This document shows, piece by piece, positions 22,908 to 61,263 of a stretch of 64,000 nt of DNA (position 1 is the stretch's first letter; each line of letters starts with the position of its first letter). Position numbers and translations under genes: made by a program. Source of the stretch: a virus. Lineage: Duplodnaviria > Caudoviricetes. The DNA lies in IMG/VR virus record IMGVR_UViG_3300034095_001474, positions 64,001-128,000 of that record. The stretch is one strand, 5' to 3'. A model generated the notes under the pieces. The model was not told where the DNA came from, ran no database searches, and worked only from the letters and a program-made list of their open reading frames with translations.

Positions 22908-22942
22908 AAAAAAAATCCGATAAATTATCGGATTTTTTTTTT
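22908..22942. terminator. intrinsic terminator
   Basis: AAAAATCCGATAA/TTATCGGATTTTT. Confidence 0.75.
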
Positions 22943-24506
22943 ATTTGAACGTAGTGTACTCACCATTTTGAAAATTTATATGTTGGGCTCTACCATCTTC
23001 ATGTATTATAACATGTGATTGTAACCATGAACTTGGTCCTATATTGTAACCTACACGTAGTTTTGTAGATGTACCTACTGCTAATCCACCATCTTTTCTT
23101 CCAGGTGAGTGATAATGTCCTACTACACATTTAGTATTTAGTTTTCTAAACTGTAACAATGACCCACGACTTCCGTTAGCACCAACATCACCATGTTGTC
23201 CCAACTCCCAATCTTTAACTTTGAATGAAGTACTTCTATCCAACGTTGTCATCTTAGGGAAATTCTTCTCAATCAAATAAGGAATTATACCTTTAGGTGC
23301 ATCACCTTTCAAAATAGCATGTGAATATTCAATATACTCCAACGCATTTTTGATGTTCTTCTTCCAATCATTGTTAATAAGCCATCTATCGATAAAGTCA
23401 TCGTGGTTACTTCTAACGATAGTTACGTTGTATTTCTCAACTTTCTTCAACCACTCCAACATGTTTTCAACCTCACGTTTTACAGAGTTTGTACCATCTT
23501 GTTCTCTACGATATAATTGGAACGCATCTTTTGATTCGTGGTGACTAATAGAATGACCATCAAATACATCATGCAATACAACGTTTGCTGGTTTTAAGTT
23601 CTTTAACAACACATTAAGAGTTACATCAATAACTTCATCATCATGATGACCTAAGTGTAAATCACCCAACACAACTGCTGCAATTGTTTTTACTCTAGAA
23701 ACGTTACCTTTGGATACATTATGATACAAATCAGTAAACTCACCAGTTTTGTCATCAGCTGTTACTTGTCTGATAAAGAAAACTTCATCATCTTTAATCT
23801 CAACGATACAAAATCCGAATGTGTGGTGAAAATCACCTACCTTTCCAGACTTTGAATCAGTATAATTCTTTTCTGTAATCGAACCAGTGGTAAGCATTAT
23901 TTTAGGTACGTTACCATCTAGTACTGGAATCATTTCCATTTGTACTTTAGGTGCACCGAAAATACATGAATTCATACCACTTAAAGCATTCATACCAGTC
24001 ATTGGATTAACCGCAGTAGGTTGTACCTTGATATCACTCATGATACTAACGTATTTGTGTATGTCATGTCTGTTCGCATCCAAGTATTTTAAGATACTTT
24101 GGTCCCAAAATTCATTGTCTTCTTGCTCTGTAGTCCATGTACTAGTAGGGTTTTTGTATCTACCAGCGATAACATGTACAGATGCATTGATATATTCAGC
24201 GTATGCCTCTATGTTTTTAAGTAATCCAGAGTTAACTGGTGTGTTGTTTTGAGCCCATGTAACGATAAAACGCTTTTTATTGGTATCAAACTCCTTATTT
24301 TGAGCTAAAGTATATTGTTCTGGTACAACTTCATCTCTTTCTTTAAGTTTTAGCTTCTCTGAAACCCATTTTCTAATGGTTCTTTGTGTTACACCGAACT
24401 CAACAGCTAAATTATCAGCCCTTTTATCCCAAGATGTATTACCTTTGTCATTATAAACAGCAGTAATGTAATCTATTTGCAATTCTGTTAACTTTTTAAA
24501 CTTCAT
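22941..24506 (-). CDS. HTH plus metallophosphoesterase-fold protein (T5 A1-like)
   Basis: N-terminal HTH, FIVTWAQNNT, GDLH, HDVFDG, SNHD, HGD, GHYHSP. Confidence 0.65.
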   Translation of the reverse strand: MKFKKLTELQIDYITAVYNDKGNTSWDKRADNLAVEFGVTQRTIRKWVSEKLKLKERDEVVPEQYTLAQNKEFDTNKKRFIVTWAQNNTPVNSGLLKNIEAYAEYINASVHVIAGRYKNPTSTWTTEQEDNEFWDQSILKYLDANRHDIHKYVSIMSDIKVQPTAVNPMTGMNALSGMNSCIFGAPKVQMEMIPVLDGNVPKIMLTTGSITEKNYTDSKSGKVGDFHHTFGFCIVEIKDDEVFFIRQVTADDKTGEFTDLYHNVSKGNVSRVKTIAAVVLGDLHLGHHDDEVIDVTLNVLLKNLKPANVVLHDVFDGHSISHHESKDAFQLYRREQDGTNSVKREVENMLEWLKKVEKYNVTIVRSNHDDFIDRWLINNDWKKNIKNALEYIEYSHAILKGDAPKGIIPYLIEKNFPKMTTLDRSTSFKVKDWELGQHGDVGANGSRGSLLQFRKLNTKCVVGHYHSPGRKDGGLAVGTSTKLRVGYNIGPSSWLQSHVIIHEDGRAQHINFQNGEYTTFK

Positions 24507-30554: not shown

Positions 30555-31006
30555 GGTACGTATTGAACAATCGTTACATACTCACCAATCATTTCATCCT
30601 CAATGATTTTCTCAATGATATCCCAATCACCACCAGCCAAACCAGCACCAATCATTGGCAATCCAAATGTTTTACCAGAGAACTTTTCTTTCATTTCTTT
30701 CAAACCAGAACGCAAAGCATCATAGTCTAAATCCATATTACCACTACGTCTACCTTTGGTATCGTATTGTGAATAAATGTTTACAATTGTTGGTTTACTG
30801 TAAACAGTATGAGAAATAGTCCCCATCTTTGATTCATCACCAGCAACTGTCTCACAGTCAGCTTCAAATGCTTCTGGAAACGCATTTTTAATTTGTGGTG
30901 CGATACCAGCACCCATAGCACAGAAACAGTTACAACCATGTGCTATTACATCGAATTTCCCTTCTTTGGCCATTTTCACTAAATCGCCTTCTACATATCT
31001 AATCAT
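30551..31006 (-). CDS. macro domain (ADP-ribose binding/hydrolase) protein
   Basis: HGCNCFCAMGAGIA, PMIGAGLAGGDW. Confidence 0.9.
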   Translation of the reverse strand: MIRYVEGDLVKMAKEGKFDVIAHGCNCFCAMGAGIAPQIKNAFPEAFEADCETVAGDESKMGTISHTVYSKPTIVNIYSQYDTKGRRSGNMDLDYDALRSGLKEMKEKFSGKTFGLPMIGAGLAGGDWDIIEKIIEDEMIGEYVTIVQYVP

Positions 31007-32622
31007 TATACTAATTGTTTATTTAATGTTATTATTCTTGCTCTATAACGTATATCTTCAAATGGTGTTTCAGTTAATAGTTTACCATTTTCAAAAACTG
31101 TTCTTAATTCATCACGTGATTCAACATACGTATCTTCCAATGATGTCACAGTGTAGTATTTACCAGTTGTATAGTGTTTAACCAATTTCAAACGACCTTG
31201 TTTAGATTTTTTGAATGATGGTTTCAAATCTCCATTCTCATCAACCTCTGTTGGTGATTTAACCAAATCACGGTGTTCACCATTTACTACTGCGAAACAT
31301 GCTTTTGTTGCAAAGTTTTGTGTATCTCTGTTGATATCAGCTTGTAACAATTTACCACCCATACCAAACACAATGTTTTCAGCAGAAATACCCAAAGAAG
31401 TCAACTCTTCGTAAATTTCAATAATTGAATTGATGTTTACACCATCACCTTGAATTACACGTACTTGTGGAGGTAAAACTTTGAAACCTTTATCGTTTAC
31501 GGTGTAACCAAATTTGTCAAACAAGATTGCAAACACTTCTTTTAATGTGTTGATAACGTGACCAGAATCTGGACGGATAACTAGTTGATTACCTGGAGTT
31601 GCTGGACGAGATAAAATCAAATCACGTAACTCAGTTCCCCATTTCTCAGAACATGCACGCAAGATATGGTAAGAGTCAGATACACACGCTACAATACCAG
31701 TAGGATATTGTTCCAACACACGTTTCATCATTTCAACTTCACCTTCTTCACCTTTCATAGTCATGATAGAGTGTTCAGTTGCTGGAACTGATTTACCAAA
31801 TACTGTGTTGGTATTGTAGTATTCACATATGCGTTTAGATGCAACAGTTGTATCAGAACCCATAAAGTTAATCAAGTGTGCTGAACCACCAATACCAGCT
31901 GATTGAACAGAAGATACACCTCTGAAACCGAAATCATTCAATACGAACTCAACAGCTACTCTCATGATATCTCCAGGCAACGAAACTGTTTTGTCGTAAT
32001 ATTCAGTAACGATTTTCTTAACTTCACGTGACAATGTTGCCACAGTGATTGGATACCACAATTGCATCATGATAGTTTCTAAGAAGTTTGTTAACCAATA
32101 ACAATTAGGGTCAGTGTTCTCAATAGTCATAAGAACGTTTTTAACACCTACAACTGTACCCTCTGGTACTGCTTTGATACGTACTGGTAATTTACCACCA
32201 TGAACATCGATAATGTATTGGAATTTAGATTTGTCAAAGACATCATCACGACCAAACACACCAAGTTCAGTACCCAAGTACTCATATGCTTCATCTAATT
32301 CTTCTTGTGTGAAGGCAACACCCTCTAAATATTCTTTGATGAACATTTCAAGACCATACCATACTGTTTCACTGAAACGACCACCACGTGATTCCATGTA
32401 TGAATAAACAGTTGTTGTGTTTTCTTCATAGAATTTGTGGTGCGAGTACTTATAAGCATCACCCATAAGTACAAGATTGTTAGGTTTATCCATTGCTTTT
32501 GAGATAAGACCTTCCAATGTTTCGATTGAAGACCAATCTTTATTTTTGATTGCCTCTGCCAATCTAGTTTTAATCACTTCTTTAAGTGCTAAACTTTTTA
32601 AATTTTTATTTTCTGATTCCAT
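31006..32622 (-). CDS. nadV: nicotinamide phosphoribosyltransferase (NAMPT)
   Basis: DAYKYSH, DFGFRG, PATEHS, VSDSY, RPDSG, IQGDG, FGMGGKLLQ. Confidence 0.93.
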   Translation of the reverse strand: MESENKNLKSLALKEVIKTRLAEAIKNKDWSSIETLEGLISKAMDKPNNLVLMGDAYKYSHHKFYEENTTTVYSYMESRGGRFSETVWYGLEMFIKEYLEGVAFTQEELDEAYEYLGTELGVFGRDDVFDKSKFQYIIDVHGGKLPVRIKAVPEGTVVGVKNVLMTIENTDPNCYWLTNFLETIMMQLWYPITVATLSREVKKIVTEYYDKTVSLPGDIMRVAVEFVLNDFGFRGVSSVQSAGIGGSAHLINFMGSDTTVASKRICEYYNTNTVFGKSVPATEHSIMTMKGEEGEVEMMKRVLEQYPTGIVACVSDSYHILRACSEKWGTELRDLILSRPATPGNQLVIRPDSGHVINTLKEVFAILFDKFGYTVNDKGFKVLPPQVRVIQGDGVNINSIIEIYEELTSLGISAENIVFGMGGKLLQADINRDTQNFATKACFAVVNGEHRDLVKSPTEVDENGDLKPSFKKSKQGRLKLVKHYTTGKYYTVTSLEDTYVESRDELRTVFENGKLLTETPFEDIRYRARIITLNKQLV

Positions 32623-41337: not shown

Positions 41338-41411
41338 TCTCCCCGATTGGGCTCGAACCAATGACTCTCGCATTAAAAGTGCGATACTCTAGCCAACTGA
41401 GTTACGAGGAG
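41338..41411 (-). tRNA. tRNA-Lys(UUU)
   Basis: cloverleaf; ASL TCGCA-CTTTTAA-TGCGA. Confidence 0.92.
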
Positions 41412-52709: not shown

Positions 52710-52808
52710 TTTTCTTTTAATTTAATTGTTAATAATAAACTTTTAACAAAGGTACAAAACTTATTTCGATAAAACAAATATATTCGTAAATATTTTTAAA
52801 TTTTTTTG

Positions 52809-52879
52809 AAATTCATACTGGGCTCGAACCAGTGTCTGATGGCTTATCGCCCTCCGTGGTGCCACTCCACTAATGAATC
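52809..52879 (-). ncRNA. tRNA-like RNA with degenerate anticodon loop (Ile GAT-like)
   Basis: intact acceptor, D and T arms; ASL GAGGG-CGATAAG-CCATC lacks U33. Confidence 0.55.
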
Positions 52880-53219: not shown

Positions 53220-53421
53220 TGAAGTTTATAAGGGCCGAGAGATTTACCTCCAGACTTCCACCACTTTGTTTTACTAAACAAAGAAAATAAGTAAAAGAGA
53301 AGCTTTGGGTCTTTCGGGGTTTCTGATTGAATGCAATGAGTAAGCTCTACCTACTATAAACCCTTTTTCGGTAATTAATACACTCTACCTTTCAATTACA
53401 GCTTAACTACTTCTCTTTATG

Positions 53422-53528
53422 TACAGAATAAAGGATTCGAACCTTTGAGTCCCCGTGTATAGGTATCATACATACCACATTCCCAGACTTTATGTATGCT
53501 CAACCTTAAGCCACTCGGTCAATTCCAT
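53422..53528 (-). ncRNA. class II-like tRNA with enlarged anticodon arm
   Basis: D arm ACC/GGT, CATACATA/TATGTATG stem with 16-nt loop, T arm AAAGG/CCTTT. Confidence 0.5.
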
Positions 53529-54601: not shown

Positions 54602-54844
54602 ACTTTTTTTTCTTTTTTTACTTTTTTTTTTATTATATTATGATTATTATATCCTTTTTCTATACTACAAATATACGAACATTTTCTTTAAATGTCAAGT
54701 GTTTTTGTAATTATTTTTAAAAAATTTTAGTATTTAACTATTTGATTACCAATACTTTTCAATGAACTTTTTCTATACTACAAATGTACGAACTCTTTTT
54801 GAATAATTCAAACTTTTTTACAATTATTTTTATTTTTTTTTTTG

Positions 54845-54938
54845 TGGAGAGATGTGGATTCGAACCACACTTTGGACGGATATTAAGTTATATCTTTCAA
54901 TAACACCACCCTTACTTTACCAATCAAGCTATCTCTCC
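54845..54938 (-). ncRNA. tRNA-like RNA with elongated anticodon arm
   Basis: GGAGAGA/TCTCTCC acceptor, D and T arms, ~20 extra nt in the anticodon arm. Confidence 0.55.
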
Positions 54939-55211: not shown

Positions 55212-55336
55212 TCGGAAGGGAAGGAATCGAACCTCCAAATAGCAGTCCCTAATAGTAGTTTTATGCTGAACATAATCTTTAAACAGATTAACTTTTTTTT
55301 ACATACTGCCGCCTTTACCAATTTGGCCACCTTCCG
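55212..55336 (-). tRNA. tRNA with ~51-nt anticodon-loop insertion (identity uncertain)
   Basis: CGGAAGG/CCTTCCG, GCAGT/ACTGC stem, insert with AATCT/AGATT hairpin. Confidence 0.6.
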
Positions 55337-56583: not shown

Positions 56584-56657
56584 TGGCGGTCCATGAGGGT
56601 AACGCTCCCTCGTCTTCGCAGTGACAGTGCGAGATTCTACTTTTATACTAATGGACC
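56584..56657 (-). tRNA. tRNA-Asp(GUC)
   Basis: G73 with encoded CCA; ASL TCGCA-CTGTCAC-TGCGA. Confidence 0.85.
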
Positions 56658-58908: not shown

Positions 58909-58913
58909 ATTTA

Positions 58914-59014
58914 AGATTGAAGTAGGACTCAAACCTACACAGCAGCCTTTGTTAGACCTCTAATGCTACCACCCCAGGTTATTGAGGCATGTCTATCAAT
59001 TTCATCATTCAACC
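58914..59014 (-). ncRNA. Leu-type tRNA-like RNA with 23-nt anticodon loop
   Basis: GGTTGAA/TTCAATC, D arm ATG/CAT, GCCTC/GAGGT stem, T arm. Confidence 0.55.
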
Positions 59015-59018
59015 TTTG

Positions 59019-59745: not shown

Positions 59746-59818
59746 TTGGCCTGGGGAATTTCGAAATCCCGACTTCTGCCATGTAAAAGCAGCACTCTTG
59801 CCTCTGAGTTACAGTCCA
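59746..59818 (-). tRNA. tRNA-Val(UAC)
   Basis: ASL CTGCT-TTTACAT-GGCAG. Confidence 0.82.
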
Positions 59819-60660: not shown

Positions 60661-60692
60661 AAAAAAGCCCATCTAAATTGTTAGATGGGCTT
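60661..60692 (-). terminator. attenuator terminator of cassette C
   Basis: AAGCCCATCTAA/TTAGATGGGCTT plus U tract ending about 3 nt before tRNA-Cys. Confidence 0.85.
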
Positions 60693-60721
60693 CATATTGT
60701 TTTTGTTATTTAAGTCAAACA

Positions 60722-60796
60722 CTAACAAACATAGCCCACCCCGTCTACTGCAAGTAAACATAATAAAAGGACGTGTAATGTGTTAATTGTTTTCAT
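60722..60796 (-). promoter_or_regulatory. leader peptide C: MKTINTLHVLLLCLLAVDGVGYVC
   Basis: 24-aa ORF; GGTGGGCT..TTTGTTA complements TAACAAA..AGCCCATC. Confidence 0.78.
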
Positions 60797-60846
60797 AATT
60801 TTTCTTTTTGTTTCTATTAAATATACCCCTATTTCTAAAAGTTACA

Positions 60847-60878
60847 CAAATGTACGACATTTATTTCAATTTGTCAAG
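60847..60878 (-). promoter_or_regulatory. promoter of cassette C
   Basis: CTTG-N20-TACATTTG. Confidence 0.7.
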
Positions 60879-60933: not shown

Positions 60934-61263
60934 TTGAATATGGGATATGTTTATTTATTTTTAGAGGTTGATAAAGAAGGTAATGAAGCTTATAAGATTG
61001 GTATTACTAAAAATGAGCCAATCAAACGAGTGAAACAATTGCAAACTGGTAATTCACGCAAATTGACTTACCTTAAATCTTATAAATCAGAAAACTACTT
61101 AAAAGTAGAACGTTTTTTACATAGAAAATATATGATAAAAACTGAAGCTGAAAATGAATGGAGAACTCTTACTGATGAACAAGTTATTTCATTCATTAAA
61201 GATTGTGAGGAAGCTGATGAAAATATCAACTTCCTTTTAAAAAACAATCATTTTTATAAGTGA
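60934..61263 (+). CDS. GIY-YIG / T5orf172-like nuclease
   Basis: YVYL..YKIGIT..RVKQLQTGN..E..LH..NEW. Confidence 0.82.
   Translation: MNMGYVYLFLEVDKEGNEAYKIGITKNEPIKRVKQLQTGNSRKLTYLKSYKSENYLKVERFLHRKYMIKTEAENEWRTLTDEQVISFIKDCEEADENINFLLKNNHFYK

Follow-up and report, generated by a model that had tools for sequence, protein, structure and literature searches.

Cassette C, at 60661-60878 of a 64,000-nt stretch of phage DNA (positions 64,001 to 128,000 of IMG/VR virus record IMGVR_UViG_3300034095_001474; the whole stretch is called the window, and its numbering is used throughout), is likely a ribosome-mediated (leader-peptide) transcription attenuator of the phage tRNA-Cys, tRNA-Val, and tRNA-Leu genes that exerts negative feedback on tRNA supply. 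The original prediction had described an attenuator sensing leucine, valine, and cysteine (L/V/C). This reading was supported in 33 homologues by an open reading frame (ORF), the identity of its codons, a terminator, a covarying antiterminator, and the geometry of the stop codon. Sequence and comparison provided the promoter motif, the ORF and its codons, the helices and their geometry, the absence of a further promoter, and the match between leader and array in sister cassettes.

The promoter, leader ORF, terminator, and tRNA-Cys of cassette C were all found on the minus strand of the window. The leader region contains the following features.

60878-60875, minus strand: −33 promoter element CTTG, 20 nt 5' of the −7 box, fitting the pattern TTG-N17-23-TAnnTTTG.
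60854-60847, minus strand: −7 promoter element TACATTTG of the TAnnTTTG type, repeat family D1.
60797-60846, minus strand: 5' untranslated region (UTR), about 45 nt long and rich in A ahead of the ATG, part of a 148-nt repeat family (D2) with three copies.
60796-60722, minus strand: leader ORF of 24 codons plus TAG, MKTINTLHVLLLCLLAVDGVGYVC, identified by ORF call and frame conservation.
60778-60746, minus strand: control codons 7-17 (L H V L L L C L L A V), taken directly from the nucleotide sequence.

The TAnnTTTG-type motif was found in about 13 copies within 40-64 kb of the window, which is the tRNA region. TAnnTTTG is the Bacteroidetes −7 consensus, and the promoter is of the Bacteroidetes type. 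The CTTG-N20-TACATTTG layout was also present at the head of cassettes A and B of the window and of the cassette C homologues, and the 5' UTR of cassette C is akin to those of cassettes A and B (repeat family D2). A promoter-like match within the leader (60753-60726) was considered as a bypass and rejected; it was unconserved in homologues and lies 5' of the terminator.

Codons 7-17 are TTA CAC GTC CTT TTA TTA TGT TTA CTT GCA GTA. The predicted count of six Leu (four TTA), two Val, and one Cys was exact, the other two Leu codons being CTT. After the initial MKT, L/V/C make up 12 of 21 residues versus 15.6% in phage proteins (binomial P 1.5e-5). The case for a codon match draws its weight from conservation, RNA covariation, and the sister cassettes, and not from the composition of cassette C alone.

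Downstream of the control codons, the leader RNA can form alternative helices.

60759-60743, minus strand: hairpin P1, GUUUACU-UGC-AGUAGAC, within codons 13-18, seen in the fold without the terminator 3' arm.
60741-60733, minus strand: antiterminator 5' strand GGGUGGGCU, codons 19-22, the partner of 60691-60683 in folds lacking the terminator 3' arm.
60691-60683, minus strand: shared strand AGCCCAUCU, which is the antiterminator 3' strand and part of the terminator 5' arm, from fold and covariation.
60693-60660, minus strand: intrinsic terminator with a 13-bp stem (60693-60681/60676-60664) and loop CAAT, from the fold (dG −18.5 kcal/mol).

When the whole leader transcript was folded, the terminator formed. 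When the terminator 3' arm was left out, P1 formed, followed directly by the long antiterminator helix GGGUGGGCU/AGCCCAUCU with a second helix, UGUUUGUU/AACAAAAACA, stacked atop it. The antiterminator had been proposed as GGTGGGCT/AGCCCATC plus TTTGTTA/TAACAAA, and both pairings were recovered in the minimum-energy fold without that arm. P1 may possibly act as an RNA polymerase pause hairpin. The antiterminator 5' strand lies 7-17 nt 5' of the stop codon, and the last of control codons 10-15 ends 12 nt or more 5' of this strand. The masking geometry was judged with ribosome footprint sizes. By this geometry, the antiterminator 5' strand would be masked by a ribosome terminating at the stop codon but left exposed by one at codons 10-15.

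The terminator ends in a U tract of seven T (60666-60660) and is followed by five tRNA genes.

60657-60584, minus strand: tRNA-Cys(GCA), first gene 3' of the terminator, ARAGORN and Rfam tRNA model (57.8 bits).
59818-59745, minus strand: tRNA-Val(UAC), ARAGORN and Rfam.
59541-59468, minus strand: tRNA-Val(UAC), ARAGORN and Rfam.
59100-59018, minus strand: tRNA-Leu(UAA), ARAGORN and Rfam.
58908-58826, minus strand: tRNA-Leu(UAG), ARAGORN and Rfam.

The full order is tRNA-Cys, three small ORFs, Val, an ORF, Val, an ORF, Leu(UAA), Leu(UAG). The array had been listed as Cys, Val, Val, Leu(UAA), a Leu-like element, and Leu(UAG); the five tRNAs were found, and the Leu-like element (58909-59017) matched nothing with ARAGORN, even relaxed, or with the Rfam tRNA model at E<=1. 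The terminator does adjoin tRNA-Cys as proposed, although the gap after the U tract is 2 nt, not about 3 nt, which leaves no room there for a promoter, as had also been stated. A second TTG-N-TAnnTTTG promoter was searched for on the minus strand from 60660 to 58830, and no match occurred until past the last Leu tRNA. A G+C-rich hairpin, GAUGGGGUAAUUAAACCCCAUC, was observed at 59844-59823 (minus strand); it ends 4 nt before the tRNA-Val at 59818, has no U tract on this strand, and may be a processing or stability element.

In the proposed mechanism, host RNA polymerase would start at the CTTG/TACATTTG promoter and a ribosome would translate the 24-codon leader. When Leu-, Val-, and Cys-tRNAs are plentiful, the ribosome would reach TAG and cover GGGUGGGCU, the terminator would form, and transcription would end 2 nt before tRNA-Cys. 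Slow decoding of L/V/C codons, mainly codons 10-15, would stall the ribosome upstream and leave GGGUGGGCU free. The free strand would then pair with the terminator 5' arm as it emerges, before the 3' arm is made, and the polymerase would enter the Cys-Val-Val-Leu-Leu array. The outcome would be that tRNAs of a kind are added only when their codons are read slowly. What we infer is that the leader is translated, that ribosomes stall on it, which way the response goes, and what triggers it physiologically.

A total of 33 distinct cassette C homologues were collected from viral and metagenome contigs via a neighbouring protein and DNA patterns. The leader frame was open in all of them, while the other two frames contained stops in 33 and 17, and the indels in the leader ORF were multiples of three. 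The homologous ORFs have 24-27 codons, with L/V/C at 10-15 of the 21-24 residues after position 3. Their terminators (−12 to −19 kcal/mol) all end 3-20 nt before tRNA-Cys, so they too leave no room for a promoter. tRNA-Cys came first in 33/33, and on every contig that extends far enough it is followed by Val and Leu tRNAs. Some of these arrays have no ORFs between the tRNAs; the tRNAs are therefore the conserved cargo. In two metagenome contigs, L173 and L193, the cassette C leader is followed by three and two tRNA-Cys genes in tandem, respectively; the L173 leader has two Cys codons, as in most homologues.

Conservation of the helices was counted on a plain MAFFT alignment (A2) that was fitted to no structure. 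For the antiterminator (columns 26-34 with 80-88), 95.3% of the cells were paired, versus 32-51% in slid controls, and eight of its nine pairs had changed on both sides. The terminator, which shares columns 80-88, was 88.3% paired, with both-sided changes at 10 of 13 pairs. P1 was 99.1% paired in the 33 sequences, with one compensatory pair (AU in 24, GC in 9) that turns a Val codon to Ala. The ORF segment and terminator arm of the same sequence paired better than permuted partners from other sequences (p<1e-4). In two homologues, L117 and L150, the core UGGGC was changed to CGGAC or CGGGU in the ORF segment and both terminator arms together, and the peptide changed from VGY to SDC or SGY. These joint changes indicate a constraint on the RNA and not on the C-terminus of the peptide. 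The antiterminator segment of the ORF began no more than 20 nt 5' of the stop in 33/33. It lay within −18 to −6 in 29 homologues, began at −20 in two, and extended to −3 or −1 in two with long predicted helices.

These data bear on two other explanations. In the first, the terminator is a fixed leaky valve that sets a constant low ratio of tRNA to leader, and the ORF and alternative helix either are incidental or contribute to the stability or processing of the RNA. A hairpin also stands directly before tRNA-Val (59844-59823), and such hairpins could protect 3' ends after RNase P cleavage, which agrees with a valve. It is nevertheless very unlikely, since the alternative helix uses the terminator 5' arm and covaries with the terminator, the other antiterminator strand is always just 5' of a conserved stop, the ORF is kept in frame, and the composition match recurs in other cassettes. 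In the second, the ORF encodes a small hydrophobic peptide with its own function, the hairpin is the terminator of that gene, and tRNA-Cys is reached by accidental read-through. Small membrane peptides are common in phages, and the core LCLLVV is kept in 33 homologues. However, this core is explained by P1, whose compensatory change turns Val to Ala, and the C-terminal residues (VGY, SGY, SDC, TGL) vary in step with the terminator arm, so that RNA pairing wins. The longest uncharged hydrophobic run, LHVLLLCLLAV, has 11 residues (11-13 overall) and is followed by D-G-V-G-Y, whereas a membrane span needs about 18-20. The sister leaders are hydrophilic yet have the same build. A functional peptide is thus highly improbable as the explanation of cassette C.

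Four codon columns just 5' of P1, outside the three covarying helices, were 73-97% L/V/C, and these columns overlap only the weakly supported 1:2 pairing. Columns around the control block were 73-100% L/V/C, with varying codons. Outside the helices, one column had CTT in 20 and TTA in 12, and the next had TTA, GTG, GTC, CTT, and TTG. Keeping L/V/C through differing codons is what selection on codon meaning would look like. The Val codons of the leaders were GTA or GTG in 70%, matching tRNA-Val(UAC), versus 48% in phage genes; little weight is given to this bias because P1 fixes some of these codons. TTG codons in the leaders showed no consistent link with the presence of tRNA-Leu(CAA).

The same design was found in sister cassettes, two in the window (A and B) and one, cassette D, on the contig of a relative with a neighbouring gene 96% identical. 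It was also found in Maribacter phage Panino (PP540027.1), which is cultured and a distant relative only, and which has three leader/terminator units before blocks of tRNA genes.

Cassette A (window): leader TYQPKQTQGGKP, then tRNA Pro, Pro, Gln, Tyr, Thr, Gly, Thr, Gly, Lys, Lys.
Cassette B (window): leader FDFAFNFAAEADE, then tRNA Phe, Glu, Glu, Asp, Ala.
Cassette D (contig of the relative): leader IHMISISNWRRNSH, then tRNA His, Trp, Ile, Met, Asn, Arg, Ser.
Panino leader 1 (L241:25321-25401): MKTQRLHQELEQPTNIGRDFYGVDGY, including QRLHQELEQP, then Pro, Glu, Gln, His, Leu, Leu, Arg.
Panino leader 2 (L241:26342-26416): MRAATGIAIIGRTKDKPLGRISVL, with the block AATGIAIIGRTKDK, then Ala, Lys, Ile, Gly, Asp, Thr, Val, Met.
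Panino leader 3 (L240:13091-12990): MKTKGNTFSWFNYSNCSDCNCGGTGCVCKFDLV, then Tyr, Ser, Ser, Asn, Trp, Phe.

All cassettes have a common promoter type, an MKT or MRT start, and a sensor block fitting the downstream tRNAs. When the seven leaders (cassettes A-D and the three of Panino) were compared with the seven arrays, the best match of each leader was its own array (7/7). The partition of amino acids differs in Panino, where Leu is grouped with Pro, Glu, Gln, His, and Arg, and the leader follows that grouping. Among 251 small ORFs of the window, the leaders of cassettes A and B alone reach their own density. In the sister cassettes and in Panino, a G-rich segment of the ORF is complementary to the terminator 5' arm; in Panino this pairing was confirmed by folding for leaders 2 and 3 and read from the sequence for leader 1. 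Cassette A has the same layout of P1 plus antiterminator (AUCGGGU/ACCCGAU). The terminators of cassettes A and B lie about 85-95 nt 5' of the first tRNA, and those of Panino just before it. The promoter-led leaders of Panino are almost leaderless, with the −7 box ending 4 nt before the ATG.

In the Panino annotation, leader 1 has a wrong start (PANI_CDS0063), leader 2 is unannotated, and leader 3 is the hypothetical protein PANI_CDS0108. The Panino paper counts 20 tRNAs and makes no mention of leaders or terminators (PMC11590407). Leader 3 of Panino has five Cys codons, yet no tRNA-Cys was annotated or found nearby. In array A of the window, a mini-ORF with five Lys codons, MKTLINIKRKKKE (41498-41457, minus strand), was observed directly 5' of the tRNA-Lys genes at 41411 and 41331. 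It is followed by a hairpin (GCACUCG.../CGAGUGU) with a poor U tract, and no clear antiterminator was seen there.

Cassette B differs from cassette C in its promoters. A second promoter copy (TTTG...TACATTTG; 57135-57066, minus strand) lies between its terminator (57175-57146) and tRNA-Phe (57060), and the homologues of cassette B have one or two such copies after the terminator. All that cassette B can contribute is therefore an increase over a basal level. Cassette C has no promoter after its terminator, and the terminator alone separates the leader from tRNA-Cys; the view of cassette C as the cleanest test case therefore holds. Taken together, the four codon-matched putative attenuators A-D cover all 20 amino acids. 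On balance, they plausibly constitute a phage-wide tRNA homeostat in which each would meter its own tRNA block by the speed at which ribosomes decode the matching codons, a design that would be shared, with reshuffled groups, by unrelated Bacteroidota phages including Panino.

Several observations weigh against codon-specific attenuation by cassette C. Three of 251 small six-frame ORFs of the AT-rich window match its 9-of-12 L/V/C density, and the L/V/C richness of cassette C alone is only moderately unusual. The leader also contains codons for His8, Ala16, Asp18, Gly, and Tyr, which have no tRNA in array C, and its hydrophobic product resembles a small membrane peptide. P1 (TGT TTA CTN GTR GTA GAC) also constrains part of the L/V/C block, and RNA structure could account for the retention of the Cys codon and two Leu/Val codons. 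When the full transcript was folded with the ribosome footprint masked at the Cys codon or at the stop, the terminator stayed the minimum-energy fold in 30-33 of 33 either way. Equilibrium folding thus always favours the terminator, and the model consequently depends on folding that is kinetic and co-transcriptional. In known attenuators, too, the terminator is favoured when the full transcript is folded at equilibrium. The 1:2 anti-antiterminator, in which codons 2-10 would pair with the antiterminator strand, is weak (own pairs −13.4, permuted pairs −11.9, p=3e-4). An untranslated transcript may therefore default to read-through, unlike in trp.

The weak anti-antiterminator is also expected if the switch senses general translation capacity, so that the tRNA operon is raised when translation is poor and the L/V/C content has no codon-specific role. 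In 32 of the 33 homologues, the antiterminator was in the minimum-energy fold when the 5' UTR was included and only the terminator 3' arm was missing, which agrees with such a switch in that the antiterminator is preferred without a ribosome before the 3' arm appears. The promoter, UTR, and MKT start are common to all cassettes, which agrees with it as well. This explanation is unlikely; it would leave unexplained why seven leaders are written in the amino acids of their own tRNAs, and why, outside the helices, the codons change while L/V/C identity persists.

Expression was assessed from a lake metatranscriptome. A 195-nt contig identical to the window (60741-60547) contains the 3' part of the leader, the terminator, tRNA-Cys, and 37 nt beyond, and another contig bridges the cassette B terminator and tRNA-Phe. 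Exact pieces of that metatranscriptome run cluster on the tRNA region; no meaning is attached to uncovered parts or to the contig ends at 60741 and 60708. These contigs fit read-through transcripts, which is a weak hint, as they are Logan assemblies that are silent on transcript ends, strand, and level, and DNA carry-over is possible, a further point against attenuation.

The window is phage DNA and was present in many lake-water metagenomes. Its T5 A1-like DNA transfer protein (gene at 22941-24506) is 46% identical to proteins of Flavobacterium and Maribacter phages. Other proteins of the window are a nuclease, a helicase, a nucleotidyltransferase, and a nicotinamide phosphoribosyltransferase (31006-32622); the latter gene and that of the transfer protein are on the minus strand. 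The source is a lake-water phage of Flavobacteria-type (Bacteroidota-type) hosts.

Cassette C was compared with known systems. Among enterobacterial attenuators, the ilvGMEDA leader has Leu, Val, and Ile codons, the ilvBN leader has Val and Leu codons, and the leu operon leader has four Leu codons. Cassette C resembles these ilv and leu leaders in its short codon-rich ORF, its intrinsic terminator, the sensing of several amino acids by one leader, and an antiterminator that shares a strand with the terminator and would be masked by a ribosome at the stop codon. It differs from them in that the cargo is tRNA genes and not biosynthetic enzymes, the carrier is a phage with a Bacteroidota-type host, the amino acids that would be sensed (Leu, Val, Cys) are those of the tRNAs behind it, and the 1:2 helix is weak or absent; there is no sequence similarity. 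The Rfam scores of cassette C were below the gathering thresholds for Phe_leader RF01859 (23.7 bits, gathering 55), Thr_leader RF00506 (20.9 bits, gathering 55), and Trp_leader RF00513 (15.8 bits, gathering 41); these are generic matches, and no leader family in Rfam was reported at gathering level.

The pheST (pheM) leader of E. coli attenuates phenylalanyl-tRNA synthetase and senses the same amino acid. It is similar to cassette C as an attenuator acting on the decoding component for the sensed amino acid, with feedback on decoding capacity. It is bacterial and controls a synthetase protein for one amino acid, whereas cassette C controls the tRNA itself for three. T-box riboswitches bind uncharged tRNA via a specifier codon and the T-box sequence, without translation. 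They likewise tie terminator/antiterminator read-through to the state of a specific tRNA, but cassette C has an ORF that is predicted to be translated. No T-box covariance model in Rfam matched cassette C at gathering level or at E<=10.

A blastn search of 50,697 deposited phage genomes found no counterpart of the cassette C leader, the matches covering only the tRNA part. A pattern scan of 185,579 bacterial and archaeal species genomes gave 0 matches to the cassette C pattern. In a full-text literature search, no description of leader-peptide attenuation of tRNA genes was found. The comparison supports the view that cassette C would represent a known attenuation mechanism with a new kind of cargo, tRNA genes.

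Other features were observed near the cassette. Odd tRNA-like genes were found at 55212-55336, 54844-54938, 53421-53519, and 52808-52879 (minus strand); they include a 125-nt Rfam match that is tRNA-like, apparently with an insertion. Among them, relaxed ARAGORN called a "tRNA-Tyr(ATA)" as well as candidates for Asn(GTT) and His(GTG) that contain short insertions. A tRNA-Asp(GTC) at 56584-56657 was missed by standard ARAGORN. A divergent ORF of 109 aa (60934-61263, plus strand) has weak PHROG matches to endonuclease families (phrog_681 and phrog_8130) and a sigma-70-like promoter close to consensus, TTGACT-17-TATAAT. In the near relative L003, another gene occupies this position; the 109-aa ORF is therefore possibly a mobile insertion.

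The reason for the presence of tRNA genes in phages, and the way in which these genes are controlled, have long been in question. Regulation of tRNA genes has mostly been discussed in terms of promoters. If the proposed mechanism is true, cassette C would provide direct codon-specific feedback on decoding capacity, in which the output of the attenuator is the tRNAs that it tests. A homeostat of this kind would replace tRNAs that run short in infection, for example after host shut-off or after cleavage of host tRNAs by defence nucleases. The leader, which spells the tRNA set under its control, would also supply a rule for annotation. The cultured pair of Panino and Maribacter halichondriae, with the same design, makes the idea testable at the bench. 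The reach of classical attenuation would thereby grow beyond amino-acid metabolism to include tRNA genes themselves, phages, and Bacteroidota.

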